Virus record (IMG/VR): IMGVR_UViG_3300008223_000001
Coordinates: 1 to 56,960 of that record
Reading direction: 5' to 3' (one strand)
Length of the DNA: 56,960 nucleotides
Source of the DNA: a virus
The notes under the pieces were generated by a model. It did no database searches. It saw nothing but the letters and a program-made list of their open reading frames with translations, and had not been told where the DNA came from. Positions 1-49,000 of this stretch are shown here, piece after piece. The position numbers and the translations under genes are program-made. Every line of letters begins with the position of its first letter. Within the stretch, counting starts at the first letter, position 1.

Positions 1-123
1 CTTGCTGAAAAGAATAAACAAAGCCTCGCAAGTGGGCGCTAAAGCTGGGAGTCGTCCTAAATTTAGCCGACGACGTAATGCGCCGGACGAAAAACCAGCA
101 AGCATTCGTGACAAGATGAATGC
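1..123. repeat. Terminal overlap, copy 1 (identical to 56838-56960)
   Basis: Base-by-base comparison: cttgctgaaaagaataaacaaagcctcg...gacaagatgaatgc is present at both ends. It lies inside a continuous reading frame. Confidence 0.95.
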
Positions 124-3007
124 GGCCGGTGGCGTTGTTAAGCATAAAGCGGATGCCATTCGTAACTTAAAGCTTGATGATTTGATGGCGATGTCGAAAG
201 ATCGTCGTGCCGTGATGCTTAATTTGATGACCGGCTTGCAGATTGAAGAGGTCTATAAATCGGTGTTTGATCAGATCAAAGCCGGTAATCCTTTGACGGA
301 GTATGCGAAGTTACTGCAAAGCATGGATGCCGTGCGCAATAACATCATGCACGATGCTGAAATGATTAATCAGTTATGGGACAAATTGAGCCCTAAAGAA
401 AGTGAAATCATGTCAGATCTAATGCTCGATGCGACATTTATGGGCCTGAATCCCGATCGCAATTACACAACGAGAGTGAATGTCGTCGGGATCAACAAGC
501 GCTTAGACACCATCCAGAAGCAATTAAATCATGCTGACTTTTTCAAGGACAGTAGTGAGGCCGCCATGTTATCGCTCAAAGGCGAACAAAAGCGACTCAT
601 GCGTGAACTCGATAACGAGAACCAGCGCCGACTCGCCTACCCTGTCTTGCGTAATCGTTATGAATCCATGTCAGATGAAGCCGTTGAAGTGTATCAGGCG
701 GTGAAAGGTTTCTTTGATAAGCAATGGGAAGATCAAAAGCGAGCCGTGCTCGATCGTATTGACCGTGCCTTTAATGATGATCCGGAAGCGTCGGACGTGG
801 CCAAAGAGGAAGTTGAGGCGATCTTTATGAAACGCTTAAAAGACGGCCCTTACTTTCCGCTTTCTCGTTTTGGTGACTTTGTATTAATTGCCAAGAAGGG
901 TGATGAATATATCCGTGAACATTTTGAGAACAGCACCGCGCGTGATCATCAGGCCAGTAAGTTTGAGGATCTTGGTTATGTTGTGACGAAAACAAAGACG
1001 AAAGAGTTTGTGCCAACCGACCTTGGCGACGTACCGGCCTTTGGGTCGGAAGTGTTCAGTTTACTCGATGATCATTTAGTCGGGGAACGGTTCCAAGACC
1101 TGAAAGACGACCTGAAGGACGATATTAATCAGCTGATTTTGAAAATGATGCCAGATGTCAGTTCGCTAAAACATTCGATCCATCGTAAAAAGATCAAAGG
1201 TTTTTCACAGGATTCACGTCGTGCCTTCTCACACACCGCCTTTCATGGTGCACACCATCTTACCCGTATCAAGCACGCTGATTTAATGCAGCATGAAATT
1301 GATGCGATGACGGATGAGGTCGACACCCTTGAAAAGTTACCGGAAAAAAGCGCGATTAGAAAAGACCAGGGGGACGTTGCGCGTGATGTTGCGAATCACA
1401 TGCGCGTACGCCACCATAAAATCATGAATCCGGACGCCTCGCCTTGGACAGCCTATGCCGGCAATCTTGGGTTTGTGATGTATTTGGGCTTTAGTTTGGG
1501 GGCTGGCTTAGTCAATTTGACCCAAACCGGCTTAATTGTCGCGCCGAAAATTGGCGCTAAGTATGGGCTGAAGGCCGCCTTTAAGGAATTGAACAAAGCC
1601 TTATTGCAATATACCCGCGCGCCTTTCAAGAAGGGAACTTATGAGTCGTGGAAATCCTTAAGCCGGAGTCAGGAGATTAAAAACGATGAGCGAGCGATGT
1701 TGATTCAATTGATCCGTGAAGGAACGATCGACACCACACAAGCCCACTCATTGGCCCAACTGTCTGAAACCGATACCCGTATGAGTAAAGAGGGTAATTT
1801 AAGCGAAAAAACCACACGATTTATGCGCTATAGCTCTGCCCTCTTTCATAATGCCGAGACCTTGAACCGAGAAGTCGCAGCACTGGCAGCGTATCGTATT
1901 GCGGTGAAAAATGGCGTGGACAAAGAGGCGGCTAAGATTTACGCCCGAAAAATGATTAACGATGGTCACTTTAATTACACCTCCACGAACCGCTCACAAT
2001 TCATGAAGAATGATGTGGTGAAAGTGCTCACACAGTTCCGGCAGTACTCGCAACACATATTGTTCACCTTAATTCGTGATACGCATCAAAGCCTCAAAGG
2101 TGAGACCAAAGAGATTAAACGGGAAGCACGCAAGGAATTGTCGGGCATTCTGGCACTACATTTTGTGGTGGCGGGGTTCTTAGGTCTGCCGTGGTTAGTT
2201 CAAGCGCCAATTTTATTAATGGGCAACTTGTTCCGTGATGATGACGATGAGCCCTACGAATTTGAAGATGATGCGCGTTCTTGGTTAGCTGAAAATCTTG
2301 GTGAAACCGCCGCAACCGCGTTGATGAAAGGCACCATTAATGCGTTGACGCCATTTGATTTGCATAGTCGGGTGAAATTAGACGGCCTACTGGTAATGAG
2401 CAACGACCGCGACTCTGAAATCAGAGACACCGGCGACATTATTATGCGGATGGTGGCCGGCCCAATGGGGGGATTACTCAGCAATTATGCACGAGGAGTC
2501 GACAATATTTCACAAGGCAATATTGAACGCGGCATCGAGAGTCTTGTGCCTAAAGCAGTACGTGATGTCATGCGATCAGGGCGTTATGCGGATGAGGGCT
2601 TGGTGGATTACAACGGCAATGAATTGATTCAGGAATTTACGGCACCGGAATTAGTGGGCCAAGCTGCGGGTATCGCGCCGGCGCGAGTGGGCGATTATTA
2701 CAAGGAAGCCAATGCTTTTAAAAACGCACAGAAGCGAATAGAGAAGCAACGTAAAACCATGCTGCGAAACTATGCCAAAGCGGCCGAAGATGGCGACGAC
2801 ACGAGCCGTGAGCAGTTGTTGGATGAAATGATTGAGTTCACTCAGAAGTACCCGACCCGTGCGATCTTTGCCGACAGTATTGTGCGATCAATGATGAGTC
2901 GAATTAAGCGTCGTCAGAAATTCGAGAACGGCATTTACTTACCCGACACCTACAACTTTCTTAGAAAACGAATTAACTTTAGAGGCAATGCCAATGACGA
3001 GTCATAA
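2..3007 (+). CDS. Giant polyvalent protein, 3' part (last 1,001 codons; PLxRFG region with hydrophobic hairpins)
   Basis: At 56821 the frame reads ...YTDLAF LLKRINKASQ..., which is the start of the listed 2..3007 ORF. 10,772 + 3,007 nt = 13,779 nt, divisible by 3. The 'M' at position 2 in the track is an internal TTG Leu. Motif PYFPLSRFGDF is present. Hydrophobic segments are YAGNLGFVMYLGFSLGAGLVNL (about 1444-1560) and LSGILALHFVVAGFLGLPWLVQAPILLMGNLF (about 2140-2235). TAA is at 3005-3007. Confidence 0.9.
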   Translation: MLKRINKASQVGAKAGSRPKFSRRRNAPDEKPASIRDKMNAAGGVVKHKADAIRNLKLDDLMAMSKDRRAVMLNLMTGLQIEEVYKSVFDQIKAGNPLTEYAKLLQSMDAVRNNIMHDAEMINQLWDKLSPKESEIMSDLMLDATFMGLNPDRNYTTRVNVVGINKRLDTIQKQLNHADFFKDSSEAAMLSLKGEQKRLMRELDNENQRRLAYPVLRNRYESMSDEAVEVYQAVKGFFDKQWEDQKRAVLDRIDRAFNDDPEASDVAKEEVEAIFMKRLKDGPYFPLSRFGDFVLIAKKGDEYIREHFENSTARDHQASKFEDLGYVVTKTKTKEFVPTDLGDVPAFGSEVFSLLDDHLVGERFQDLKDDLKDDINQLILKMMPDVSSLKHSIHRKKIKGFSQDSRRAFSHTAFHGAHHLTRIKHADLMQHEIDAMTDEVDTLEKLPEKSAIRKDQGDVARDVANHMRVRHHKIMNPDASPWTAYAGNLGFVMYLGFSLGAGLVNLTQTGLIVAPKIGAKYGLKAAFKELNKALLQYTRAPFKKGTYESWKSLSRSQEIKNDERAMLIQLIREGTIDTTQAHSLAQLSETDTRMSKEGNLSEKTTRFMRYSSALFHNAETLNREVAALAAYRIAVKNGVDKEAAKIYARKMINDGHFNYTSTNRSQFMKNDVVKVLTQFRQYSQHILFTLIRDTHQSLKGETKEIKREARKELSGILALHFVVAGFLGLPWLVQAPILLMGNLFRDDDDEPYEFEDDARSWLAENLGETAATALMKGTINALTPFDLHSRVKLDGLLVMSNDRDSEIRDTGDIIMRMVAGPMGGLLSNYARGVDNISQGNIERGIESLVPKAVRDVMRSGRYADEGLVDYNGNELIQEFTAPELVGQAAGIAPARVGDYYKEANAFKNAQKRIEKQRKTMLRNYAKAAEDGDDTSREQLLDEMIEFTQKYPTRAIFADSIVRSMMSRIKRRQKFENGIYLPDTYNFLRKRINFRGNANDES
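857..874 (+). other. PLxRFG signature
   Basis: Codons ccg ctt tct cgt ttt ggt give P-L-S-R-F-G. Confidence 0.7.
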
Positions 3008-3586: not shown

Positions 3587-3968
3587 TTGCCACCTCGCTT
3601 AATGCTGCCTTTAATCTTTGCTTTAGATTTTCTAAATCTGTAATAGTATCATTCAATCTTAGCACAACATTCGTTTCCATCGCGTCGCATAGGTCGTATC
3701 TAAATCTTTTCAAGGAATCGATGGTTCGTGCGATGTCCTGAGTCTGCTTTCTGACTACAACACTATTGTATCGATCAACAATAAGCGGTGGGAGTGCTGC
3801 TCTGTCTTTATGAAATGCCTTGCACGATCCGCAATAGTAGTTTTTAACGTCATTTTGGTTGTAGCTTGATTTTAAGCACACCTTGCAGTGAATGGCTTTG
3901 CTATTCTGATTGTCGTCATAAAATATTTCGTATGCGTTTGAGCTTTCTAGTGTTTTAAAGTTAAGCAT
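3576..3968 (-). CDS. Zinc-ribbon protein, hypothetical
   Basis: 130 aa. CKVC...CGSC pairs, followed by a helical C-terminus. Confidence 0.5.
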   Translation of the reverse strand: MLNFKTLESSNAYEIFYDDNQNSKAIHCKVCLKSSYNQNDVKNYYCGSCKAFHKDRAALPPLIVDRYNSVVVRKQTQDIARTIDSLKRFRYDLCDAMETNVVLRLNDTITDLENLKQRLKAALSEVANGV

Positions 3969-4674
3969 TTTTACGTTCCAATTTTTTAAGTTCTATTTTT
4001 ATCTGCATTAGGTGTCTTGCTTCAATGCCATGACTTCGAGCAAGCGCTCTGAGTTGGTGTCGCTTTTCTATCCAAGTACGCAGCGTCATAAGTGCAACGT
4101 TAAACAATTCTGCTACTTTGACCTGTGATGTTCCGTTGTTGAGCTCCATAATAATGTCGCTTTCATGGATATCTAATTTGCTTTTGATAATCGCGCCAAT
4201 GGCTCGACCGTTGGTTAATCCTCGTTTGCTTCTAATTTCGCACGCGGTGGTTGCTTTATGTGCCCTTCCCTCTGATAATTTCATCGCCCCAAAGGCTTCA
4301 CCTAGCAATAAAAACATCGTACTGGCCTCATTTTCAACTGAGGAATCAATTACTGTTCGGGAATAACAAAAAACAATCTGCGCCCCCGTATCAATAATGG
4401 CTTGAACTAAGCCGACTACCGCCATCGGCTTTTGGCGACTAATCCTCGCCACGTCCGACACCAAAACAATATCCCCCTTGTTTAGCTTGCCTGCTAAATC
4501 TAACCAGCCTCTTTGCTCGATCGTCGTATTGTATCCAGAGACATTACGTTCGATGAAGTTCTTTGCTGGGATGAGCAAGCCCTCTTCAGTGGCATATTTT
4601 GAAATAGCATGGCGCTGAGCGCGTGAATCTTGTTTGTCCGAGTCACTGACTCTTATATAGGCATAAACGGTCAT
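3961..4674 (-). CDS. Small serine recombinase (resolvase/invertase family)
   Basis: MTVYAYIRVSDSDKQDSRAQ (YxRVSxxxQ catalytic Ser motif). VLVSDVARISR. C-terminal HTH VKVAELFNVALMTLRTWI. The likely start is the ATG at 4674 rather than the track start at 4755. Confidence 0.85.
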   Translation of the reverse strand: MTVYAYIRVSDSDKQDSRAQRHAISKYATEEGLLIPAKNFIERNVSGYNTTIEQRGWLDLAGKLNKGDIVLVSDVARISRQKPMAVVGLVQAIIDTGAQIVFCYSRTVIDSSVENEASTMFLLLGEAFGAMKLSEGRAHKATTACEIRSKRGLTNGRAIGAIIKSKLDIHESDIIMELNNGTSQVKVAELFNVALMTLRTWIEKRHQLRALARSHGIEARHLMQIKIELKKLERKNA

Positions 4675-4892
4675 TTTTTGTACGACTTCCTTGATGTCTA
4701 GTTTAGAGGTTTGATTTACCGTTAAACTGTATAGGATTGTGATGAATTCAGCCACTACTTTCTTATATAGTTTAGAGATTACTCTAGACTATGTTTGTTT
4801 TGGGTGTTGGTAGATCAGCAATGTGCGATCTAAATAAATCGGTTTTATCGGGTCGCACTTGTAGGTTTATCAGGAATTTTTAAGGTTAAAAA

Positions 4893-5329: not shown

Positions 5330-5414
5330 TTGAGCGGTGCATAACTAAATAACTTGTTAACATGTTAATAGATCTTTTTATAATAGTAAGAGACACTTTG
5401 ATCATTTATTGATC
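5330..5414. promoter_or_regulatory. AT-rich segment with three GATC sites (candidate unwinding element)
   Basis: GATC at 5371, 5400 and 5411, within a visibly AT-rich stretch between the iterons and the 3' end of repA. Confidence 0.4.
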
Positions 5415-6288
5415 ATAACGGCTTTTTCTTGTGTTTTTTGGCTAAAGATCCAATCGGCATCGGTTTTGGTCTCGCTATCACAACGTTATCAACTAACGTT
5501 AATTTATAATCAGGGATTAAGTTCGCTGTGATACGTTTATTAAGCTGCTTCCTAAATCCGATAAGGTTTTCAACCGACCCCGATCGCTTATGAAGATTCT
5601 CTATACGAATCGGCCATTTCTTTTGATTATGACAATGCCTATTCGCTAATTCATACAAACGACGATCTAGCGCTGCTCTGATTTTGAAGTAATCAGGATT
5701 AATCGTGGCAAAGTTTTTGGGATCTTCTAGCGACTCAAGCAGGACAGAGGGCAATTCAAGCTTAATACTGAGCATTCGACCATCTTTCTTATCATCGGTT
5801 CTAACCACGTCAAAATCATCAAGAAGGTTAAAAGACCGGATACGCTTTGTTTCACTCTTCTCGTTTTTTAAAACAATCTCTATATTAGTGTGCTTTAAGC
5901 GACGTAAAGCCGCCAATAAGCGATCATAGTCATCAGCCGAAGGCTTAGGTCTCTTTCCAGTACGATTAGTCGTCATGAGAAGGTCATGAGCTATCAGCAG
6001 CACATCTTTACCTATTGGCTCATTCCTATTCTTAGCCGCCATTAAATGACTCATACAATAGATAATCACATCTTTGTCATGAATCGTGGCATGACCAACC
6101 TCAAGACCAGGCGTAACTTTTATTTTCACCCTGTCATCTTCATAAACTCGAATATGCTTATCAATTTCATGCTCTTGAACTTTAGCGGCTGTATTGCTTA
6201 AGCTGTAAAGAGGTGCAGACATGGACTCTAAGTCGTCTTTAAACGAAACATCGAACAAATCACACACGAAAAGGTCTATTTGATCCAT
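5413..6288 (-). CDS. repA: Plasmid replication initiator (RepA / 'replication initiator protein A' type)
   Basis: 291 aa. The N-terminus DLFVCDLFDVSFKDDLESMSAPLYSLS matches the pattern I know from RPA-family initiators. It is adjacent to the iteron array. Confidence 0.7.
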   Translation of the reverse strand: MDQIDLFVCDLFDVSFKDDLESMSAPLYSLSNTAAKVQEHEIDKHIRVYEDDRVKIKVTPGLEVGHATIHDKDVIIYCMSHLMAAKNRNEPIGKDVLLIAHDLLMTTNRTGKRPKPSADDYDRLLAALRRLKHTNIEIVLKNEKSETKRIRSFNLLDDFDVVRTDDKKDGRMLSIKLELPSVLLESLEDPKNFATINPDYFKIRAALDRRLYELANRHCHNQKKWPIRIENLHKRSGSVENLIGFRKQLNKRITANLIPDYKLTLVDNVVIARPKPMPIGSLAKKHKKKPL

Positions 6289-10099: not shown

Positions 10100-10383
10100 A
10101 GTGTTTTAATCTCCTTGATTAGCCGCTCATCTGTTGCTTTTGATCCGATCGAAATCAGCGCACGAATAACGGTTGTTTCTGATATTTTTCTACCGGTCGC
10201 CTTTCTTAGCCGCATAACCATAATGGTTAGTTGGGCTTTGTCGTCAGGCTGTAGACGAAACGACGTAGGCTTGACCGCGCCTGTTTTGACAGGCTTAGGT
10301 TCTGACGTTGGCGAGTCAGAGGTTTGTTTGTCCTCAATGTGCTGAGTTAGCTTTGACTTAATAACGCGTTTAGAAGCTGGCAT
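10093..10383 (-). CDS. Small partition-partner / centromere-binding protein (RHH-like)
   Basis: 96 aa, overlapping the 3' end of parA by 14 nt. Basic, flexible N-terminus, then SFRLQPDDKAQLTIMVMRL, which resembles a ribbon-helix-helix. Confidence 0.5.
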   Translation of the reverse strand: MPASKRVIKSKLTQHIEDKQTSDSPTSEPKPVKTGAVKPTSFRLQPDDKAQLTIMVMRLRKATGRKISETTVIRALISIGSKATDERLIKEIKTLL

Positions 10384-11134
10384 TTAGCACCTCTTTAGAT
10401 AATGACTTGAACTGCTTTGCGCATTTACTATGAGGCATATATTTCGCGATCGGCAATTGCTCGCGTTTGCTATCTTTCATATAAACTGTGGCGGATATTG
10501 TTGTCTTGGCTACCCGTTCTCTTATCACCTCAAGCTCTTGATCGTTTACCTTATTTAACCGGCGTTGTCGGCCGTCAACCATGCTTTGCACAACCATGTA
10601 ATTGATATCATCGGTTTCTTTGACCTCTTCAATTTTCTTCAAAAGAAAAGCGATGCCATTGATTGCATCTGAACCCCCTTCTACGGGAATAATAAAGTCA
10701 TCGGAGGCAAAGGCGGCGATCTCTCCGAGAGTCCCCAGTGACGGGGGGCAGTCGATGATAACGTGGTCGAATTGATTCTTGAGAGGTTTAAGCAGATTCG
10801 CGAGGCGCTTCTCTTTATGTAACGACACGGATAATTGCGGCACAAGCGTCGCCAAGTAGTGAGAACCAGGCACTATAAAAAGGTTCTTATATTCTTCCCC
10901 TTCTGGACTGGTCGCGGGAACTATCAGTTTCGTTAGATCGTAACGAGCATTTAGAAGCGCTTCACTGATGTTAGGCGCGTCATCCGATACATAGACGTCA
11001 CTGCCGTTTCTTTGCTCATCCAAATCAACCAATAGGGTACGCTTGTCAGCTAATGCCAACTCGTAGCAGAGGTTGTAGGCAACCGCCGTTTTACCAACCC
11101 CACCCTTATTATTAAATATTGCTGTGACTCTCAT
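10370..11134 (-). CDS. parA: ParA/Soj-type partition ATPase
   Basis: Deviant Walker A: MRVTAIFNNKGGVGKTAVA. Also VIIDCPPSLG. Confidence 0.9.
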   Translation of the reverse strand: MRVTAIFNNKGGVGKTAVAYNLCYELALADKRTLLVDLDEQRNGSDVYVSDDAPNISEALLNARYDLTKLIVPATSPEGEEYKNLFIVPGSHYLATLVPQLSVSLHKEKRLANLLKPLKNQFDHVIIDCPPSLGTLGEIAAFASDDFIIPVEGGSDAINGIAFLLKKIEEVKETDDINYMVVQSMVDGRQRRLNKVNDQELEVIRERVAKTTISATVYMKDSKREQLPIAKYMPHSKCAKQFKSLSKEVLNASF

Positions 11135-12111: not shown

Positions 12112-12306
12112 TTAACCCGCGTCCTGTTCAGCGAATATACGCGCTTCATAAACTTCGGTGCGATCAATTTTTATATGTCTTGGCGCATCAATACCAATTT
12201 TGCCCTCGCGTCCGCTGTCATCCATTCCTAAGAAACAAATCAAAATCTCAGCACCACCGGCCTGAATCATGAACGACTGGTCTTCTTTACGGCGTAGTAT
12301 CAGCAT
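12112..12306 (-). CDS. csrA: CsrA/RsmA-family RNA-binding regulator homologue
   Basis: MLILRRKEDQSFMI ... KIGIDAPRHIKIDRTEVYE aligns with E. coli CsrA (MLILTRRVGETLMI ... RIGVNAPKEVSVHREEIYQ). There is a 5-aa insertion in the middle loop. Confidence 0.75.
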   Translation of the reverse strand: MLILRRKEDQSFMIQAGGAEILICFLGMDDSGREGKIGIDAPRHIKIDRTEVYEARIFAEQDAG

Positions 12307-13642: not shown

Positions 13643-14140
13643 TTATTCGACTTGTTCCGACATCGCGACGGTCAAAAAGGATTTAACGAGTGCGATATTA
13701 ACTTTTTTGCTGCGTTGACACAGTTTATAAACTTGCACAATAACGCGCGCTTTGGATTCAGGCGGGCAGATACTGTCGTCTTCAGCCAGTATCTTATCAA
13801 TCATAATCATAACGTCGGTTAGAAACGCAAAGTCAGGCACAGCGTGGACTCTGTTCTGATTGTCACTACGAAACATATCGCCTTTACCGGTGAATAGGTA
13901 ATCGATACTCGCGTTAAATTCATCACAAATTTTCAACAAAAGCGGCATGGCGGGGGTGGCTCCGGCATTAAACCATTTGGTAATGCCGCCCTGTGAGGTT
14001 TTAAAATCTTTTTCTAACTTGGTCTGACGCCCGTCTCCATGCTTTGGGTAGTTTGGAATAGCGTCTAGAAGCGCACTAAAATTATGCGCAAACTGTTGGC
14101 GCACATAGGTCTTATCAATTACCGTCATAGTTGTTGTCAT
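13643..14140 (-). CDS. CI-like XRE-family repressor (no S24 peptidase domain seen)
   Basis: HTH: KLEKDFKTSQGGITKWFNAGATPAMPLLLKICDEFNASIDYLFTG. It is divergent from the plus-strand early operon. Confidence 0.7.
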   Translation of the reverse strand: MTTTMTVIDKTYVRQQFAHNFSALLDAIPNYPKHGDGRQTKLEKDFKTSQGGITKWFNAGATPAMPLLLKICDEFNASIDYLFTGKGDMFRSDNQNRVHAVPDFAFLTDVMIMIDKILAEDDSICPPESKARVIVQVYKLCQRSKKVNIALVKSFLTVAMSEQVE

Positions 14141-14336
14141 CCTAGTATTGACCCCTTTGGCTCTTACCTGAGCCTCTAATTTAAAGGGTCTTAATACCGC
14201 ACATAATAATACCTAAATCACAATAAATCAAAAATGCGTGATTATTAGACACTTGATAAAAATACTAATCGCTTTATTATTGACAATCTTTTTAGAGCTA
14301 TTACGCCAAAAAGATACTAATAAACATAGGATTATC
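14141..14336. promoter_or_regulatory. Divergent early control region
   Basis: 196-bp AT-rich gap between divergent genes. It contains TTGACC, TTGATA and TTGACA hexamers and a repeated ATACTAAT. Promoters and operators were not mapped. Confidence 0.5.
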
Positions 14337-17564: not shown

Positions 17565-17978
17565 ATGATACTACATTTATTTTCTGCTATAGCGTTCGTT
17601 GAAGCAGCGCTTGAAGCGGCTGAAACCGGCTTTGTTCGTTGTGAAAATTGTGACTCCCAAGAAGACACAAAAGATTTGGATTTCATTGGCAACATTAAGG
17701 CGGCAAAAGACCAACTGCTTCACGCCACGCTCAGTTTAAACAGTACTGGCCGTTATTTCATATTTCATTTTGCTTCAGGCCTAGCACGCGGCAATCATTT
17801 GATTTGGACGGAAGGCGGCAGATTTCCCACTACAAATTTCATTTTAGACGTAATAGCGAAGGAAAGCGGCCTTAAAACGGATGAAATAGTCATCACGGGA
17901 TGGACGGAGTTTAAAAGCGAGCAAGATTTTAATGACTATAGATCGGCAAGCAATCACCAAGAGATTGAGCAAGGTTGA
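17565..17978 (+). CDS. Hypothetical protein
   Basis: 137-aa ORF. Confidence 0.5.
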   Translation: MILHLFSAIAFVEAALEAAETGFVRCENCDSQEDTKDLDFIGNIKAAKDQLLHATLSLNSTGRYFIFHFASGLARGNHLIWTEGGRFPTTNFILDVIAKESGLKTDEIVITGWTEFKSEQDFNDYRSASNHQEIEQG

Positions 17979-18235
17979 TCTATCAAGATTATGCCAATTT
18001 GATTTTAGATGAACATGAGATCAACACACGGCGAAAAATATTAACCGCCCTTGAACAAAGTAAAGGGCTTATTTTTCGCAATACCGTACAGAACCTTGTT
18101 TGGATTCAATATCTAGCAGGGAAAGACTTTAGGATGACAGGGTGGAGGAACCAGCACATTCAAGATATTAAAAAAGGTTTGTTATGTCAGAAGACATTCA
18201 AGAAGCTCCTTATGAATCCGCTTACGCTTGCTTAA
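17975..18235 (+). CDS. Hypothetical protein (TTG start)
   Basis: 86-aa ORF. It overlaps the next gene by 52 nt, so it is weak. Confidence 0.3.
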   Translation: MIYQDYANLILDEHEINTRRKILTALEQSKGLIFRNTVQNLVWIQYLAGKDFRMTGWRNQHIQDIKKGLLCQKTFKKLLMNPLTLA

Positions 18236-18705
18236 GTCGTATTATTCCCCCACCTGAAGGGCGCGCTAAGTCCGTAAACCTACAATGCCAGCAAGGCATG
18301 ACACAAAATCCAGATGCCGTCACGTATTTGGATCGCGTGGCGCAAGATGCGATAGCATTACGCGTGGTAGAAGCGTACATTGCTAGTCATGATCCCGCTT
18401 GGCTTTATTTGTATGGCCATTTCGGTGACCTCAATCAAAAGAAATTAGCCGTGACTTATCTCGCTAAGCGAATCATGCCAGCCCTTGAAACAGAGATAGA
18501 CAAGGGCTTTGTTGAGGATATCGTGAAAAAATGGGCGGATGTGAGCGGCTATGCAACCATTGAGCAATGGACGACGAAACTAGAAAAGTCACAACCGACC
18601 CTTTACCGTTGGCAAAAAAAGGTCCGAAGACACTTGCTGGAAGGCTTTTGTCGCGCGGTCGATGAAGCCGAAACAATTTTGCATCAGAGGAATTTCATAA
18701 AATAA
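18184..18705 (+). CDS. Hypothetical protein; possible late regulator with a C-terminal HTH
   Basis: 173 aa. C-terminal segment SQPTLYRWQKKVRRHLLEGF. It is the last gene of the early-right block. The call rests on position only. Confidence 0.3.
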   Translation: MSEDIQEAPYESAYACLSRIIPPPEGRAKSVNLQCQQGMTQNPDAVTYLDRVAQDAIALRVVEAYIASHDPAWLYLYGHFGDLNQKKLAVTYLAKRIMPALETEIDKGFVEDIVKKWADVSGYATIEQWTTKLEKSQPTLYRWQKKVRRHLLEGFCRAVDEAETILHQRNFIK

Positions 18706-18769: not shown

Positions 18770-19225
18770 ATGAAATCGGCACGAACAAAAAGAAAAATAC
18801 TACTGATTGATGATAATAATGATGATTGTCTGTTGTTTGAGCGCGCGCTTAATTATGCAGAAACCGAAAACAGCGTTTCAATGATCGCAACCCGAAACGT
18901 CACGGAGGCCCACAACGAGATCAATAGCGACTCACGCTTACCGGATGTTATTTTTATCGATTACAATTTACGCGACCTAGATGATCCACTGGCGTGCCTG
19001 CATTTCATCGTAGAAATGAAATCAAACGACTGGACGAACTGGATTCCCATTGTGGTTTTCACCGATCAATTGAATCCCGACGATACAATCATCGAGGTGA
19101 TGCGAGGCGGGGCCAGTAGTTTCGTCTCTAAAAACAGCGATAGCCGTGAAGTCTTTTATATTGATATCATTTCGGCAGTGAATTACTGGGTTGATTTTAA
19201 TCTCACCCCGCACAATGGCTTATAA
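18770..19225 (+). CDS. Stand-alone response-regulator receiver (CheY/Rcp1-like) protein
   Basis: KILLIDDNNDD (acidic pocket), PDVIFIDYNLRD (phospho-acceptor Asp), IPIVVFTDQ (Thr), SSFVSKN (Lys), and the C-terminal YWVDFNLTP tail typical of single-domain receivers. Confidence 0.8.
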   Translation: MKSARTKRKILLIDDNNDDCLLFERALNYAETENSVSMIATRNVTEAHNEINSDSRLPDVIFIDYNLRDLDDPLACLHFIVEMKSNDWTNWIPIVVFTDQLNPDDTIIEVMRGGASSFVSKNSDSREVFYIDIISAVNYWVDFNLTPHNGL

Positions 19226-19231
19226 GCACCG

Positions 19232-19690
19232 CTAAGGCAGGTCGTCCAAACCTTTAATGTTTGATCGATTACGGGTTATTTTATTGATTTTATGTTCACC
19301 GGTTGTGAATTGTAATAGTGTGTTGATCGCCTCGATGACGTCATTATCTGCATTTTGTAGCCGCTCAATGAGGGCATTAAAATTGGAGTCAGAGCTATTA
19401 CGATGATAAAACGCATCAATTCGAGAGATATACCGCGCGTCCTGCTCGCTCTCATTTGTACCGGTGGTTAAATAATGAAAGTTCATTTTTAAGGCGAGAC
19501 ACAATCTTAGAATGTAATTGATATCATTCGGCATTCCCGTTGACGCGTGATTCTCCCAACGTGTATACGTATTGCGGCTCACGCCAACTAGCATTGCAAG
19601 ATCGGTTTTGGATAGTTTTTTATCCACCCGCGCGCGCTTGAGGCGCTGAGAAAACTCAAATTTTTCAACAGAACGTTCACATAAACGCAT
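19232..19690 (-). CDS. XRE-family transcription factor
   Basis: FSQRLKRARVDKKLSKTDLAMLVGVSRNTYTRWEN. ATG 19690 is preferred, because the track's N-terminal extension looks non-coding. It is convergent with the receiver gene, 6 bp away. Confidence 0.75.
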   Translation of the reverse strand: MRLCERSVEKFEFSQRLKRARVDKKLSKTDLAMLVGVSRNTYTRWENHASTGMPNDINYILRLCLALKMNFHYLTTGTNESEQDARYISRIDAFYHRNSSDSNFNALIERLQNADNDVIEAINTLLQFTTGEHKINKITRNRSNIKGLDDLP

Positions 19691-19865
19691 AAAAACCCAG
19701 TTACTAAAACAAATAAAACATAAAAAATGACACACCAATGGTGCATAATAGCACAAAACCGTGTTTTTGCTCTGTTGGCGATACAATCCTCGTTTGGCCT
19801 TGAAAAATAAAACAGTTATGTTTGATGGTTAAATATAACAACCAGAGATTCAAAGAGAATAAATC
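19691..19865. promoter_or_regulatory. Divergent control region between the XRE gene and the small ORF
   Basis: 175 bp, AT-rich, with an imperfect palindrome agcacaaaaccgtgtttttgct (19750-19771). Confidence 0.4.
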
Positions 19866-20066
19866 ATGTGCAGTATCCAAGAAAAAATTAACCAAATGAT
19901 TGAAAGTGCTGAAGGCTCAGCAGTCGTTTCGGTAATTTCTACACTCGATATCATGACGCAACTCAGCAAAGAAGGGCGAGACTATATAACGGCGATCGCA
20001 AAAGACCGCTTGAAGTGTGAGCTAATGCTGCTCTCAAGTGAGACAGACACCTGCAAGCTGCCCTAA
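19866..20066 (+). CDS. Small ORF (66 aa) divergent from the XRE gene
   Basis: MCSIQEKINQMIESAEGS... has protein-like composition. No family recognised. Confidence 0.45.
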   Translation: MCSIQEKINQMIESAEGSAVVSVISTLDIMTQLSKEGRDYITAIAKDRLKCELMLLSSETDTCKLP

Positions 20067-20221
20067 AAATACAATTTATTTTAACAAATAGCTCTTTTGG
20101 TGTTGATAGCTCTGATAGAGTTATGTAAGATTCGTCTATCTTGAAGCGTAGTGGTTTTGAGTGAAGTGGTTTCATATTATTCCTAGTAGTAAATTTCAGA
20201 TTACCAGTGTTACTTTTTCAG

Positions 20222-20253
20222 CCCGTCATTTTCTCAAGTGACGGGTTTTTTTT
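20222..20253 (+). terminator. Rho-independent terminator
   Basis: cccgtca-ttttctcaag-tgacggg followed by T8. Confidence 0.8.
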
Positions 20254-20273
20254 GGTTAAAATTTGGCCCCCTC

Positions 20274-20627
20274 ATGAGCGAAAAACTGTCATTTAAACAC
20301 GAAATTGCAACGGGCCACCTCGTTCAAATCACCACGATCATTGTCTCCGTCGTCAGTTTGTATTTTGGCCTGATCTACGAAATTGAAGTCAACGGCCACG
20401 AAATTGCGAACAACACTAAAGAGATTGCGCGACACGAAGCTGTATTAGACCGACACGAAAGCCGCTTTGTTTTAGCAGATAAAGTTTCGCAACGACGCAT
20501 CGCGGAATCAGAGGCCAGAATTACGGAACAACTGACACAACAACTACAACCGATCAATAAATCATTAGACAAAGTAAATGATGATCTTTCTTGGCTGGTT
20601 CGTCGGGAGGCTGATAAAAAAAAATGA
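20274..20627 (+). CDS. Lysis-cassette membrane protein (holin or i-spanin-like): one TM helix plus a coiled coil
   Basis: LVQITTIIVSVVSLYFGLIY, then a long charged helix. It has an ATGA overlap with the endolysin gene. The track start at 20238 lies inside the terminator, so ATG 20274 is used. Confidence 0.45.
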   Translation: MSEKLSFKHEIATGHLVQITTIIVSVVSLYFGLIYEIEVNGHEIANNTKEIARHEAVLDRHESRFVLADKVSQRRIAESEARITEQLTQQLQPINKSLDKVNDDLSWLVRREADKKK

Positions 20628-21163
20628 TCAACCCTAAACATTTAGTTCAACACGTTATTCGTCCCACACTGTTAAATATGGGGATGTGGAGTCAGTCGGC
20701 GGAGTGCTTGTTAATCGGCACCGTGGCCGTTGAGTCTGCAATGGGAACGAGCTTGGTTCAAAATCGTGGCCCAGCCGTAGGGATTTATCAGATTGAACCC
20801 AAAACCGCCCAAGACTTATTACGTCGATATCTAAGCAATCGACCCACGATAGACTATCGATTCCAAAATGGCTTTGTGACATTTGAAAGCCCACCGATCC
20901 ATTGGGATAAAGTCACGAACGACGAAATATCACAGCGCTTGATTGTAGATTTGAGTTTTTCAACGGCGCTCGCTCGAATCAAATATTGGAGTATCCCTTT
21001 TCCGCTACCTGATCACAAAGATATTGAGGGTTTAGCGAATTACTGGAAGCAGCATTACAACACCCGCAAAGGCAAAGGCAAAGTGACAGACTTTATCGAT
21101 GCTTACCCAAAGAGGCTTAAACCTTATGATCGCTCCGCGACAGGATTCACCGCTCGCAGTTAA
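20624..21163 (+). CDS. Endolysin, lytic-transglycosylase (SLT)-like
   Basis: LLIGTVAVESAMGTSLVQNRGPAVGIYQIEPKTAQDL (catalytic E-S followed by G-x-x-Q-I). Confidence 0.6.
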   Translation: MINPKHLVQHVIRPTLLNMGMWSQSAECLLIGTVAVESAMGTSLVQNRGPAVGIYQIEPKTAQDLLRRYLSNRPTIDYRFQNGFVTFESPPIHWDKVTNDEISQRLIVDLSFSTALARIKYWSIPFPLPDHKDIEGLANYWKQHYNTRKGKGKVTDFIDAYPKRLKPYDRSATGFTARS

Positions 21164-21521
21164 AACCGTTTTCCCCCGTACACTCAAAACACAACACCTT
21201 TTCTTTAAACGAAAAATCCAACTAATGGAACCTTTTGTCGTTCAGTCTGAAACCATCGGCCGATTTATTGTGCCGCTTGGTTTTATATCGGATGGCGCGA
21301 GCGTGCCTCGCTGGTTTTGGTCAATATTCCCACCCTTTGGGAAATATTTAGAAGCGGCCGTCGCGCATGATTACATCTATGCCGAGGCTTATCACAAATT
21401 CACAAAAGAGCAAGCCGACACCTTGTTTCTTGAACTTTTGAAACTCTTAGACATTGGTTTCATCAAGCGTAATACCATGTATACCGCTGTGAAGTTCGGA
21501 GGCACTGGCGGCTGGGATTAA
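21126..21521 (+). CDS. DUF1353-family protein
   Basis: GFISDGASVPRWFWSIFPPFGKYLEAAVAHDYIY. The start is uncertain: 21099, 21126 or 21225. Confidence 0.6.
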   Translation: MIAPRQDSPLAVKTVFPRTLKTQHLFFKRKIQLMEPFVVQSETIGRFIVPLGFISDGASVPRWFWSIFPPFGKYLEAAVAHDYIYAEAYHKFTKEQADTLFLELLKLLDIGFIKRNTMYTAVKFGGTGGWD

Positions 21522-44785: not shown

Positions 44786-46066
44786 ATGTCGGGTTTTGGG
44801 TACATGGCAAGGGGCTATAACAATTTTCGCAGAGAAAGTCGTCGTGAAGATATTCAAGATGAACAGCGCGAGCGAACCACAGATAGTTATGAGTATGAAA
44901 AAGGGCTACGTCCTTTGAAAGAAGAGGCGTTACGTGCAGATATAGAGGCTAAGAAAGCGAATGGCGTGGGCTTAGGTTTAAACAATAAACTGAAGCAAAA
45001 CGACGTCGATCGACTTCCAACGACCAATGCGACGACGGATAAGAAAACCGAACTCGGCTTAAAAGCGCTCAAACAAGAAACCGATCAAAATGACATCGAA
45101 AGCGATTTTCTTCGTCAAGGTTTGGAAGATAAACAGACCTTAACCCAACAACAAATTAAGTCGAACCAGATGTCGCAAAGTATGATTGGTGAAAAATGGG
45201 ATGAAGAGAAAAACGCATGGTCAGATAAAGCGCGCATTCTCGCCTCGACCGCGACCAATGCCGAATTACAAACCTTGATTGCTGAAATTGACTTGGATAA
45301 TGCGAGGCTTGTTCAAGGCGTGAAGTCGGCCGAAACTGAAACCGCGCTCATGGGAAATCTCACTAAGCAACAAGCCCTTGTGTATAAGTTAATGGTCAAT
45401 GGTGAGAGCAAGATGGCGGCCGATTCATTGAACCGCAATAAGTTCAACGACATCGATACTGCCGCTGATATTTTCATTGATGACAAGACGGGTGACGCCA
45501 TCATTCTCGATGCGTCTGGTGAGGAGCTTAAGCGTATTACGAAAGAGCAGATGGACGGTTTCGCCCGTTTGTTTGATGAAAATACGACTAAAAAGGACAC
45601 GTACCAGCAAGACAGCACCGGCAAGTACTTCAAAGTCAGGGGCAATACGGCCTCGCCTGTTACGACGCCTGATGGTGAGCAGTTAGTGGGCGGTTTACCC
45701 AAAGGCTCCGGTAAATCGAGCGCCGGTGCGGTATCGGATAAGAAGTCTTTCCAAATTTCAATTAAGTATGGGGATGGAAAAGTTGAGGAGAAGAACTGGA
45801 CGAAAGCCGAGGCGCAGAAACACTATGAACAAAAATACAGCCTCATCCCGTCCGAACAATTAGATCAATTAATGCTGTCTGACCCGAAAGCGTGGAAATC
45901 CGCACTGCAAGAAAATAACGCTGCGCGTGAAGGTATTCCAAAGCTTGAAGAGTGGTTAGGCGATGTGATGAGCAATGGCATCCAATTAGGTGGCGGTGGC
46001 TTGCCTAGAAAAGAAGTTGCTGATGATGATGGTTCAAATGATGCGTTTTTTGAGGGCTTGAAGTAA
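44786..46066 (+). CDS. Putative internal virion/ejection protein (coiled coil)
   Basis: 426 aa, preceded by aggagtg. Its stop overlaps the ATG of the giant ORF. Confidence 0.4.
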   Translation: MSGFGYMARGYNNFRRESRREDIQDEQRERTTDSYEYEKGLRPLKEEALRADIEAKKANGVGLGLNNKLKQNDVDRLPTTNATTDKKTELGLKALKQETDQNDIESDFLRQGLEDKQTLTQQQIKSNQMSQSMIGEKWDEEKNAWSDKARILASTATNAELQTLIAEIDLDNARLVQGVKSAETETALMGNLTKQQALVYKLMVNGESKMAADSLNRNKFNDIDTAADIFIDDKTGDAIILDASGEELKRITKEQMDGFARLFDENTTKKDTYQQDSTGKYFKVRGNTASPVTTPDGEQLVGGLPKGSGKSSAGAVSDKKSFQISIKYGDGKVEEKNWTKAEAQKHYEQKYSLIPSEQLDQLMLSDPKAWKSALQENNAAREGIPKLEEWLGDVMSNGIQLGGGGLPRKEVADDDGSNDAFFEGLK

Positions 46067-49000
46067 TGGGAATTGAAGAACGCTGGAAAGGGGTTGAAGA
46101 AGACGAACGTTTTAGCAGTTTAGATGATGTGGGTAAAACCAAGGTTAAAGACAATTTCTTTAATCAGTATGTCACACCACGAGTCGCAGAAGACAAGCTA
46201 GACGTGGCGCGTGAACGTTTTGATGGTATTGCGTCCCCTGTTGTTGCGTATGACTATGTAAAGTCGATGGCCGGTGGTGCTGCCTCAATGGTGCAAGGGC
46301 TAAGTTGGTTAGCCAATAAAGGCACCGGTGGCGCTATTGATGAGAAATTTAATAAAGTGCTTGGTCGTTCCTTAACGGATATGGGCGGGGATGCCGCGAA
46401 GTATTGGACAGATAAGTTTTCAGCCAGCATGAAGCGATCGGCGTCTAAGCGTTTTATCTCAGATAAAGAAGGTGAAATCTTTGGGGATGCAATGTTAGAT
46501 CCTCATGCATGGGGCAACACGTTCGCGCAATCTATCCCAATGATGGTGCCTGGTATTGCCGCTGCCGGTCTCACGGCTAAAGCCTCGGTCGCAAGATCGC
46601 TTGGCGGTAAAGTCTTTGCGACAGAATCCGCGAAGAAAGTCGCTGAGAAAATCGCGATGAAGAAGGCAGCAGGAACCGCCGCTGTAGTGGGTTCAACCGC
46701 TGAAGGGACAATTAGTGCGGGGATGATTGGCCATAAAGTCGAGAGTCATATTCTCGGCATGAAACCCGAAGATTTAGTGGGTTCACCGTTTTTTGATGAA
46801 TTGATTGATAGTGGTATGGAAGTCGAAGCCGCACAAAAAGAACTCGCCCATAAAGCCAGTTTGAGTGCCGCTTTACCGGCCGGTGTCATGGTCGGTTTGC
46901 TAGGTTTCCACTTTAATAAGATGGTCGGTGATGCCGTGGTCGGTGGCCTATCCACGAATGTCGCCAAAGAAGCCGGTAAAGGCGCTGCACTCGAAGGCAC
47001 CACCGAAATCGCTCAAGGTTTGGCAGAAGGCATGATGGAGCAATCCACGCTGAACTCTGCGGCCAATGTTGACTTTAAACCACGCGATATCGCCAATGAT
47101 GCGGTCGCAGGTTTAGGGGCCGGTTCGAGCATGGGTTTTGCGGTCGGGGCTGGCGGCAGTATTAACAGCAATATTAAGCAGTACAAAGAAAACAAAGCAG
47201 GCACAGCACCGGATTCCGAAGAAAATGGAGCCCCACAACCGGAACCTGAAAATGATCTAGATGAGCAGCTCGAAACACTGCGTTCAGCCGGTGCCGATTT
47301 GCAGTCACAAATGATGCAAACCGATGATCAAAACGAAATTGCCGCACTACGTTCTGCCTTAGAAGAGGTACATACCCAAGCGTCCAACTTAGTTGAAGAG
47401 AATTATGAAGCGCCACCCGTCGATGGCGTTGAGGTCGATCAGGTATTAACTGAGCATGAGGCGCAGCGTGAAGAGATCCCTACCTTAACTGAGGAGGTAA
47501 AGCCGGAACGCATCGAACCGACGGATGAGCTTAATGCCGCCTTGAAAGAAGAGTTTCCGGAAATGCGCAGTTTTAGTGGCGATCAAGGTGAAAGCGCTTT
47601 TGAGTACCACCCTGAAGACTTTGATCAAGACTTAGAATTGGACGACTACGGGCAAGAACTCGCTGTCACGATCAATGAGGCACGTCACGCCGGTGTTAGC
47701 GAAACAGAACTTGAGAATGCCTTAGCCGGTGAAGCCGACGACAACCTTGTTCATGCCATTAACCAATTAACCCACGGGAGATTAAATTTTGAAACACAAA
47801 GCATTGGAACAAGCGAACCGGTGGCAGATGAAACCGCCGAAGTTACGCAAGCAGAATCAAGCAGTCAGCCAGCCAAGCCAGCCAGTATCACCAGTGAAGA
47901 AATAAGCGAAAAGGCCAATCAAGCTGCCACGTCGCCCACGAATGATTTAGCCGAGCCAACCCAAGCACAGAAAGAATCCGGCAATTATAAGAAGGGTGCG
48001 CCCTTTAAGTTGCACGGCTTGAATGTCGTGATTGAAAACCCGAAAGACTCCACTCGCTCCGGAGAGGACGAAAAAGGAAAGGCATGGTCGAATACCATGG
48101 GTGCTCACTATGGCGATATTAAAGGCACAAAAGGCGCTGATGGGGATGCACTCGATATCTTTATCGGCCCTAACCCTGAAGTCGATAAGTTCTATGTGAT
48201 CGATCAAATCAACCCGAACGATGGGACGTTTGACGAACATAAAATCATGTCGGGATTCAAGACCGCTGAAGAAGCCAAAGCCGCTTACTTATCATCATAC
48301 GATAAAGACTGGCAAGGCATTGGTGATATGCAATTCGCCACTAAGCAAGGCTTGGGTGCATGGATCAAAAAAGCGGATACCACGAAGCCCTATTATTCTA
48401 AAAGCACACTGCCATTAAAATCTAGCGCGGCAGAAGTAGTGCAAAAAGACACTACAGAAGTAGCGCAAAAGGAACCGCAAGATGTAGCGCAGAATAGCAC
48501 TACCTTAGACTTGATTGATTTTTCAGAAAAAGCCTATCTAGTGAAAGGTGAAACGAAAGTTCATAAAGAAAAGTTACAAGCACTTGGCGGCTCGTTCAAT
48601 CGTAAGCACCAAGGGTGGATGTACTCTAAGAAACGATCCGGCGAAAAGCTGAAAGCATTTGTTGATGATATCAACCGTTATCCTGACATCGAGAAGGATG
48701 TTGCGACGTGGAAAAGTGTAAATCCTTCTAGCGTACAGCCAGAATCATCCGTTGAAGGATTCAAACAAGGTCATCGCGATCGTAAAGACGGTAAACCGGC
48801 CGACCGATCGAAGGGTCACGCTTACGAGTTAGGCTTTTCGCTTGCATCCAAGAACCATGCAATTGACAAGAATGAAACCAAAGTTGATGAGGTGAATCAT
48901 GGACAAGTTCAGAAAGAAAGCACAACACCACAAATCAAAATTATCGAAACGAACCAAGAAGTACTTTCAGCTAAAGAAAAGGATCGAGACACATCCGCAC

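Follow-up and report, generated by a model that had tools for sequence, protein, structure and literature searches.

Introduction

How might a temperate phage whose repressor carries no S24 peptidase domain be told to abandon lysogeny, and could a protein of some sixty amino acids be the messenger? This is the question raised by positions 19,232 to 20,066 of the IMG/VR virus record IMGVR_UViG_3300008223_000001, a contig of 56,960 bp that was analyzed whole and that I will refer to as the window. Here, a gene for a transcription factor of the XRE family faces an open reading frame (ORF) of 66 codons across a 175-bp AT-rich region, and an earlier interpretation made from the letters alone (the sequence-only reading) had proposed that the two form a module in which a transcription factor controls a small protein that induces the prophage, as described for plasmid-like vibriophages. 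In this article, I will discuss a computational follow-up in which the two divergent genes, the helix-turn-helix (HTH) domain of the regulator and the AT-rich spacer between them were all borne out, and in which a third gene came to light, a stand-alone response-regulator receiver (REC) that converges on the XRE gene and is the most tightly conserved component of the unit. I will argue, tentatively, that XRE, gated by REC, may act as a switch for a small effector whose action would drive the prophage towards lysis, a proposal that I consider plausible while stopping short of calling it probable.

A three-gene cassette that recurs in diverged loci

The components of the unit in the window are as follows.

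18770..19225, plus strand: stand-alone response-regulator receiver (REC), 151 amino acids (Pfam Response_reg, PF00072, E = 4.9e-9)
19232..19690, minus strand: XRE-family transcription factor, 152 amino acids from the first ATG, beginning MRLCERS (ORF and Pfam)
19691..19865, no strand: divergent control region, 175 bp, 32% GC (read from the sequence)
19866..20066, plus strand: small ORF, 66 amino acids, acidic with an isoelectric point of 4.7 (ORF and translation)

Together they span about 1.3 kb in the order small ORF, divergent region of about 175 bp, XRE and REC, the last two lying tail to tail with 6 nt between their stop codons. The strongest evidence that this arrangement has meaning is comparative and comes from 14 independent loci of the same family, namely the window, L061, L062, L107, L108, L109, L120, L121, L124, L125, L126, L127, L128 and L129. 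In 12 of them (the window, L061, L062, L108, L120, L121, L124, L125, L126, L127, L128 and L129) the XRE gene is paired tail to tail with a REC gene, the junction of their 3' ends ranging from a 6-nt gap to a 61-nt overlap and the XRE proteins sharing 25-40% identity with that of the window. The divergent spacer measures 172-217 bp in all eight loci with enough upstream DNA, and across it lies an ORF of 52-68 amino acids in seven of these eight (the window, L061, L062, L120, L121, L125 and L126), so that the geometry of a transcription factor facing a small ORF, claimed for the window, is now seen well beyond it. The exception is L128, where the XRE gene faces an ORF of 413 amino acids with a T7-type RNA polymerase domain (PF00940; 1551-2792, minus strand) in place of the small ORF; the neighbors in that locus also include a DNA ligase gene. 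Judged from this synteny, the XRE gene, the small ORF that it faces and the REC gene form a cassette that recurs in many unrelated phage-like contigs.

Equally informative is the company that the cassette keeps. In L061, L062 and L125 the order is a leftward cro-like gene, cI, the small ORF converging on cI, XRE, and REC converging on XRE. The small ORF, or a second small ORF, overlaps the 3' end of the short cI-type gene (125-142 amino acids) in these three loci, so its transcription would run antisense into cI, and the products of these short cI genes are of the HTH type with no peptidase domain matched. In L121, the REC gene lies in an operon behind a gene of 232 codons that in turn faces a Cro-like gene. 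Genes for CsrA, GerE-type HTH proteins, Rad52 and SSB recur near the cassette, and both L061 and L062 end in a tRNA gene, with an integrase gene alongside in L062, so these two are probably integrating prophages. By these placements the cassette is portable, and its usual home is the immunity region or the early genes of a temperate phage; the neighborhoods of L061, L062, L121 and L125 are what would be expected of an accessory induction module. The window places its cassette otherwise, after the early operon and just before a terminator and the lysis genes.

An XRE family with its own C-terminal domain

The XRE protein scores above the Pfam thresholds for HTH_19, HTH_31, HTH_3 and HTH_26 and includes the string KLSKTDLAMLVGVSRNTYTRWEN quoted in the sequence-only reading; its longest frame, from a TTG start, covers 19232-19786. 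The N-terminal HTH occupies approximately residues 10-76 and is followed by a family-specific three-helix domain at approximately residues 85-130, the C-terminal part having been described earlier as of no recognized type, a description that holds in that residues ~77-152 match no Pfam, NCBIfam or PDB sequence family. A word-indexed search of 5.8 billion proteins returned only the protein itself, and tblastn (E <= 1e-3), run on a collection of 50,697 phage records, detected no more than six matches, all of them weak and partial, in phages of Yersinia, Lactobacillus and Clostridioides; these covered 38-55% of the query at its HTH end. An exhaustive HMMER search of 1.84 billion representatives retrieved about 20 proteins of 130-180 amino acids that align with it from end to end at 25-40% identity and share the C-terminal motif Y-x-R-Y-x-x-D-x-x-F...L...D...I. 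By these alignments, the XRE protein and its relatives form an undescribed and unannotated family that joins an HTH to a conserved C-terminal domain. The top HMMER matches to the HTH itself (P0003, P0004 and P0005; 1170-2332 amino acids) are giant proteins with 8-15 tandem XRE-type HTH repeats. When several alignments of XRE and of REC were used as patterns to scan IMG/VR, GTDB genomes and JGI metagenomes, only L061/L063/L115 (one contig) and L062 emerged, the rest being unrelated HTH proteins such as L110.

AlphaFold2, supplied with the family alignment, modeled the protein at a mean predicted local distance difference test (pLDDT) score of 85.9, with a five-helix HTH and C-terminal helices at 85-100, 102-113 and 116-130. 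Foldseek comparison of this model with the PDB and BFVD matched only the HTH, as did a PDB sequence search, and the HTH superposes on the N-terminal domains of P22 C2, 434 repressor, C.BclI and SinR at 1.3-2.2 Å. Both the five-helix HTH and the Pfam models place the protein in the XRE / Cro-C1 superfamily.

A receiver without an output domain

The REC gene had no place in the unit as first proposed. Its product keeps the complete catalytic set of a receiver (D14, D15, D64, T98 and K121) with no second domain in its 151 amino acids, and by fold, catalytic residues and the lack of an output domain it belongs to the single-domain receiver class, its closest solved relatives being single-domain regulators of the RcpA/RcpB/Rcp1 type. 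All 12 of the partner receivers retain the acidic pair (Asp or Glu first, Asp second), the phospho-acceptor Asp64 and the Thr/Ser; the Lys is present in nine of the 12, replaced by Arg in two and by Leu in one, and a family-specific C-terminal YW motif is found in 11. No cognate kinase gene adjoins REC in any locus examined. Since one XRE family with its own C-terminal domain is strictly paired with a phosphorylatable receiver, the two suggest a response regulator that has been split into two polypeptides.

Directly upstream of REC on the same strand lies an ORF of 173 codons (18184-18705, plus strand) whose C-terminus matches weakly a PHROG of no assigned role and which has no Pfam, NCBIfam or PDB match; by position, it could encode a late regulator.

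The small ORF

The sequence-only reading recognized no similarity for the 66-amino-acid product, and larger searches agree: the word-indexed search of 5.8 billion proteins returned only the protein itself, tblastn against the 50,697 phage records found no match, and Pfam, PHROG, NCBIfam and PADLOC scans detected neither an HTH nor any other family. Modeled by AlphaFold2 on its single sequence, the protein shows two long helices at a pLDDT of 69, too weak for a fold search, and is thus predicted to be a helical hairpin. Its codon-usage score is positive in its own frame only, with 10% of spurious ORFs of similar size matching that score; 9% of shuffled spacers hold an ORF as long; its Shine-Dalgarno match is weak; and a gene caller reported it as a gene in the ENA record, where this phage had been assembled independently.

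The strong part of the evidence for the small ORF is its comparative position, in that seven of the eight loci keep an ORF in the same place. In L061 and L062 the counterparts are identical in length, with a proportion of nonsynonymous differences (pN) of 0.38 against a synonymous one (pS) of 0.86, the synonymous sites being saturated, a pattern that points to purifying selection; a second small ORF of 48-49 amino acids downstream is also conserved between these two loci. The small ORFs diverge much faster than XRE or REC (38% versus 72-74% identity), and from one locus to another their pairwise similarity falls below detection. A SinI/SinR-like kinship of the small protein with the XRE C-terminal domain was considered and dropped, as the two gave no alignment.

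The divergent control region

Two candidate operators were marked in the spacer.

19751..19770, no strand: candidate operator B, GCACAAAACCGTGTTTTTGC, the palindrome of the sequence-only reading
19810..19825, no strand: candidate operator A, AAACAGTTATGTTTGA, 41-56 nt upstream of the small-ORF ATG

At 32% GC, the spacer is poorer than the ~37-52% found across the profiled 12-24 kb stretch. The imperfect palindrome pointed out earlier at 19750-19771 (AGCACAAAACCGTGTTTTTGCT) is present, with eight of 11 positions pairing; on its own it does not rise above chance, because 28% of dinucleotide shuffles of the spacer hold one as good (P = 0.28). What lends it some weight is that the 57-kb genome has a single copy of its motif, GCA(C)AAAA..TTTT(G)TGC, and that an 11-mer of operator B, GCAAAAACACG, recurs in a palindrome of the distant relative L121, GCAAAAACACGTTTTGC, which sits immediately before TGCTACAAT. 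Operator A includes a palindrome with perfect 5-bp arms and a 4-nt spacer (19810-19823), and a palindrome of the L121 spacer, AACATTATGTT, has the 10-mer TCAAACATAA in common with it. By shuffling, the chance of sharing the 11-mer is P = 0.059 and that of sharing two separate 10-mers P = 0.019, and the recognition helix of the L121 XRE protein is nearly identical to that of the window (HRNTYTLWED against SRNTYTRWEN). Statistics confined to the window fall short of significance (perfect-palindrome count, P = 0.17; 10-bp direct repeat, P = 0.09).

Where these sites lie relative to the promoters matters for the sign of regulation. Operator B overlaps the TG of a candidate extended -10 of the XRE gene (TGCTATTAT, minus strand, 19753-19745), and operator A adjoins a candidate -10, TATAAC (19834-19839), of the small ORF; these promoters were assigned by eye, a consensus scan finding no 9-of-12 promoter in the spacer. 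Footprint alignment of L061 and L062 brings out a conserved palindrome, CCTATGAAYAGGG, unlike that of the window; ahead of the XRE gene, a conserved TATAAT is overlapped by a second copy of it. CCTATGAAYAGGG is absent from their cI-cro spacers, whose operators differ in type. Such positions suggest that XRE would regulate itself and possibly repress the small-ORF promoter. With candidate operators overlapping core promoter elements, repression followed by derepression would fit at least as well as activation. Searches for known RNAs in the spacer or in the leader that follows the small ORF gave only a sub-threshold match to NsiR4.

The repressor and a proposed route to induction

If the small protein acts on lysogeny, its candidate target, by analogy with the published modules, would be the following protein.

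13643..14140, minus strand: CI-like repressor, 165 amino acids (weak Pfam HTH_3 and Phage_CI_repr matches; PHROG repressor families)

That this repressor has no S24 peptidase domain, as had been claimed, is upheld by a Pfam scan, and the protein is weakly similar over its full length to the cI product of L061 (E = 1e-4). No Cro-like ORF was found between the CI-like gene and the O-like gene (14141-14336); the latter probably starts at ATG 14337 and not at GTG 14238, so that about 196 bp of spacer separate the two genes, and no operators are common to this spacer and the one between XRE and the small ORF. An antirepressor under SOS control was also considered and dropped, there being no LexA box above chance anywhere in the window genome, and no Pfam match to an antirepressor family was obtained among the 10 further ORFs of the 3.2-12.1 kb stretch to the left of cI.

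The route that I favor would run as follows. XRE would bind palindromic operators in the spacer and control both its own promoter and that of the small ORF, while REC, once it had taken a phosphoryl group from a host histidine kinase or from acetyl-phosphate, would modulate XRE, probably through the three-helix C-terminal domain, the pair acting as a split response regulator. A change in the state of XRE would then lead to production of the small, acidic and presumably helical protein, which would shift the prophage into lytic growth; its likeliest means would be a non-covalent inactivation of the CI-like repressor, which is taken to be non-cleavable. In the window genome, this unit ends at a strong terminator just before the lysis cassette. 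An output on the decision between lysis and lysogeny is suggested because relatives hold the cassette against short cI genes with no matched peptidase domain, because the CI-like protein of the window has no S24 domain and its genome no LexA box, and because L128 replaces the small ORF with an RNA polymerase-type output; a non-proteolytic antirepressor is the simplest form that these observations suggest for the small protein. The transcription factor-small protein module of the sequence-only reading stands with regard to its conserved geometry, its repressor devoid of S24, the missing LexA box and the cI neighborhood in relatives, and needs enlarging by the receiver that it overlooked. Specified down to its last step, in which a split response regulator reads a histidine-kinase or acetyl-phosphate signal and a fast-evolving helical protein of about 60 amino acids then inactivates a non-cleavable CI, the scheme becomes rather doubtful, with CI as the target being drawn purely from analogy.

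Several observations weigh against this proposal and are best taken together. Within the window genome alone, coding support for the small ORF is only moderate, and homology of the small ORFs across loci lies at the edge of detection: pairwise BLASTP and hhalign comparisons of the window protein with its L061 and L062 counterparts gave nothing, and a leave-one-out hidden Markov model built from four counterparts scored the window protein at 12.1 bits, a score reached by none of 2000 composition-matched shuffles, in a group that was chosen partly by eye and whose other members reach only P = 0.02-0.23, so that this match is suggestive. The candidate operators over the XRE extended -10 and beside the small-ORF -10 suggest repression and not the activation of the published modules. 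The cassette of the window lies 5.5 kb from cI and beside the lysis genes, with which control of late genes would be equally compatible. REC and XRE are convergent and not co-transcribed, which is unusual for partners and could mean antisense interference. Two family loci have a partner other than REC, in that an XRE sub-branch (P0060 and P0081) lies tail to tail with a conserved protein of about 305 amino acids with no known domain (L107, 534-1451, minus strand; L109, 536-922, minus strand); on this account the XRE C-terminal domain may adapt to various partners. Finally, L126 is flanked by WYL- and PilZ-domain genes and is not obviously a phage.

Other explanations of the same genes

The alternative that survives best, though I consider it unlikely, is a secondary repressor switch with no part played by CI, in which a REC-gated XRE would repress the small ORF and the small protein would have another role. 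It might time lysis or act on late genes, antagonize XRE itself in the manner of Cro or MOR (compare SinR/SinI and TP901-1 CI/MOR), or inhibit a function of the host. It would accommodate the overlap of candidate operators with core elements of both divergent promoters, the position of the window unit directly upstream of the terminator and lysis cassette, and the RNA polymerase-domain gene on the divergent side of L128; the combination of an HTH with a helical C-terminal domain also resembles SinR and phage CI-like repressors, with a high root-mean-square deviation outside the HTH. However, the small ORF is unlike the XRE C-terminal domain whereas SinI resembles SinR, it has neither an HTH nor a match to any family, and in three relatives it converges on cI and is not near late genes.

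Less probable still is a host-directed moron, in which REC would draw off phosphate or act as a decoy and so rewire two-component signaling of the host during lysogeny, XRE would regulate its own and accessory genes, and the small ORF would be incidental. Other mimics of host regulators are indeed present: CsrA is encoded in the window and near the cassette in L061 (9942-10136) and L125 (4715-4906), and GerE/LuxR-type HTH proteins of 125-141 amino acids are encoded beside it in L061 (9107-9532), L062 (3558-3947) and L121 (3122-3499). REC itself is of the stand-alone Rcp type, which acts by protein-protein contacts. Yet a moron would leave unexplained the strict tail-to-tail pairing of REC with one XRE family, the equally conserved divergent small ORF and the recurrent placement in the cI/cro region. 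Some of the GerE/LuxR-type neighbors have a hydrophobic C-terminus and, together with a REC-only gene, resemble a NarL-type regulator split into polypeptides.

The region that follows the small ORF raises a further explanation.

20067..20219, plus strand: untranslated stretch between the small ORF and the terminator, with the direct repeats ATAGCTCT... occurring twice
20220..20255, plus strand: intrinsic terminator, a 12-bp stem followed by a U-run (terminator scan and RNA fold)

It seems improbable that the 66-codon ORF is no functional gene here and that 19866-20255 is instead a late-operon leader with a pR'-like promoter and a tR'-like terminator that an antiterminator would allow transcription to pass, the XRE gene being an unrelated neighbor. 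The terminator, a strong one, closes the transcription unit of the small ORF 27 nt ahead of the first lysis-cassette gene, and the late genes would need read-through or antitermination; a sigma-70-like site (TTGATA-17-TAAGAT) precedes it at 20103-20131, and RNA folding of 20060-20262, a stretch that includes the terminator, gives z = -3.15. Around the sigma-70-like site, 20088-20172 holds two pairs of short direct repeats, ATAGCTCTTTTGGTGTT / ATAGCTCTGATAGAGTT and AGCGTAGTGGTTT / AGTGAAGTGGTTT, which may be binding sites for a late regulator, and a 15-mer resembling them occurs at 19769-19783 in the XRE spacer. The stretch 20067-20219 could be a 3' untranslated region, a late-operon leader or both. 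The weak ribosome-binding site, the moderate codon statistics and the want of a homologue among 5.8 billion proteins would all suit a leader. Against it, the position of the small ORF is held in seven of eight relatives with no lysis genes nearby, the window protein matches their profile, an independent gene caller called it, and no Q-family antiterminator was matched for the ORFs of 17565-18705 in Pfam, PHROG, NCBIfam or PDB scans, the 173-codon ORF upstream of REC included; moreover, a leader and a real small gene can coexist. The terminator overlaps the GTG (20238) of the longest frame of the first lysis-cassette gene (to 20627), which most likely starts at ATG 20274 and encodes 117 amino acids, as in the ENA record.

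It is very improbable that the unit serves as a toxin-antitoxin pair or as a defence against phages, the small protein being the toxin and XRE its antitoxin or regulator: HTH antitoxins of the XRE type are common, and weak, sub-threshold, HTH-only NCBIfam/PADLOC matches to MqsA, PezA, HipB and RmrA were obtained, but the genes diverge instead of sharing an operon, no toxin or defence family is matched by the small ORF or by REC, the conserved third partner is a receiver domain, and membership of the type II systems was rejected on the divergent genes and the lack of a recognizable toxin. Overall, the conserved gene order argues most strongly against the leader and toxin-antitoxin explanations and less strongly against the moron and a switch independent of CI.

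The phage that carries the cassette

The genes that bear on the lifestyle of the phage include the following.

3961-4755, minus strand: resolvase
5413-6288, minus strand: RepA, RPA family
10370-11134, minus strand: ParA
12112-12306, minus strand: CsrA homologue (Pfam CsrA, E = 1.5e-13)

The contig closes into a circle, and a DarB-like ORF of 4,633 codons on the plus strand runs from 46066-56960 through the contig junction to 1-3007, so that the contig represents a complete circular or circularly permuted genome; the C-terminal 1001 amino acids of its product match DarB-like antirestriction families and giant PHROG families of no assigned role. No protelomerase was found among the window ORFs scanned, and the plasmid-like vibriophage setting invoked in the sequence-only reading gives way to a temperate phage-plasmid of the circular type, with RepA, ParA and a resolvase. 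Gam and an exonuclease are also encoded on the minus strand; facing the CI-like gene are the O-like replication gene, NinB and several genes of no assigned role, and farther along come holin-like, endolysin-like, DUF1353, small and large terminase, portal, major head and tail-fibre genes. The cassette lies 8 kb from parA and 13 kb from repA. The DUF1353 gene (21099-21521, plus strand) has 65 nt in common with the 3' end of the endolysin-like gene (20624-21163); its family is annotated in PHROGs as a tail assembly chaperone, yet here it sits within the lysis cassette.

The nearest relatives of RepA, about 40% identical, are on plasmids of marine Rhodobacteraceae, and the nearest terminases are <=56% identical. 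The same phage was assembled independently in the ENA metagenome; megablast against phage and plasmid collections gave no match, and none of the genes of the cassette region is shared by 57 terminase-based relatives in IMG/VR.

Comparison with known systems

How does the cassette compare with what is already known? The region downstream of the small ORF is like the lambdoid pR'-tR' leader in its strong terminator just upstream of holin and endolysin genes and in the sigma-70-like promoter before it, and unlike a Q leader in that no Q homologue is recognized, an ORF conserved in position lies inside it, and the cassettes of relatives have no adjoining lysis genes. The receiver is like RcpA, RcpB and Rcp1 in size, catalytic residues and C-terminal extension, and unlike them in being phage-borne, always coupled to an XRE gene and endowed with the family-specific YW motif.

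In several systems, among them Coi/C1 of P1, RstC/RstR of CTXphi, MOR/CI of TP901-1 and SinI/SinR of Bacillus subtilis, a protein of about 57-75 amino acids neutralizes a repressor of the XRE or CI type without proteolysis, and both SinR and TP901-1 CI combine an HTH with a helical C-terminal domain, as does the XRE protein of the cassette. The small ORF shares no sequence or profile similarity with Coi, RstC, MOR or SinI, and none of these pairs is known to work with a receiver-domain partner.

The known inputs to prophage induction other than SOS are ligand-binding receptors (VqmA, LuxR and arbitrium) or constitutive transcription factors that drive small antirepressors, and two-component signaling is the commonest signaling currency of bacteria. 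Within the literature searched, no paper was found on a receiver-domain version of a module in which a transcription factor faces a small ORF. If the proposal made here is true, two-component phosphotransfer would join the inputs to prophage induction, beside SOS and quorum-sensing ligands. Its credibility comes from a compact unit of about 1.3 kb seen in at least a dozen diverged loci, repeatedly against short cI genes with no recognizable peptidase domain. The cassette also marks out a subfamily of XRE proteins that lacks annotation and has a conserved C-terminal domain, and its layout provides a comparative rule by which small phage genes missed by annotation can be found; and even if the induction reading is wrong, the strict pairing of XRE with REC points to an undescribed two-polypeptide response regulator.

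The published modules of a transcription factor and a small ORF (TF-smORF), namely VqmA_Phage-Qtip of VP882, TF72-smORF72 and TF63-smORF63, are found in linear plasmid-like phages (Silpe et al., Nature 2023, PMC10432266). The window shares with them a phage HTH regulator that faces an ORF of about 50-70 codons across about 150-200 bp, a small protein with no homologue or recognizable domain, and a temperate element of plasmid type in which a non-SOS route would serve a repressor that is not autoproteolytic. It differs in that its cassette lies neither between repA and telN nor next to cI, in a circular RepA/ParA genome with no protelomerase, and so falls outside the locational definition of these modules, which is the repA-telN interval of a linear plasmid-like phage. 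It differs further in its third conserved gene, the receiver, in the distinct C-terminal domain of its XRE protein, and in operator positions that hint at repression where the published modules activate.

The closest logical analogue is the XRE-LuxR-smORF modules of the Aeromonas phages ARM81ld and Apop, in which XRE depends on a sensory partner for expression of the counter-oriented smORF, whose product inactivates cI (PMC10432266). Both arrangements combine an XRE regulator, a separate sensory partner and a counter-oriented small ORF. In the cassette, however, the partner is a phospho-receiver (PF00072) and not an autoinducer-binding LuxR protein, its gene converges on and abuts xre instead of following it in an operon, and the input to be expected is phosphorylation rather than an acyl-homoserine lactone.

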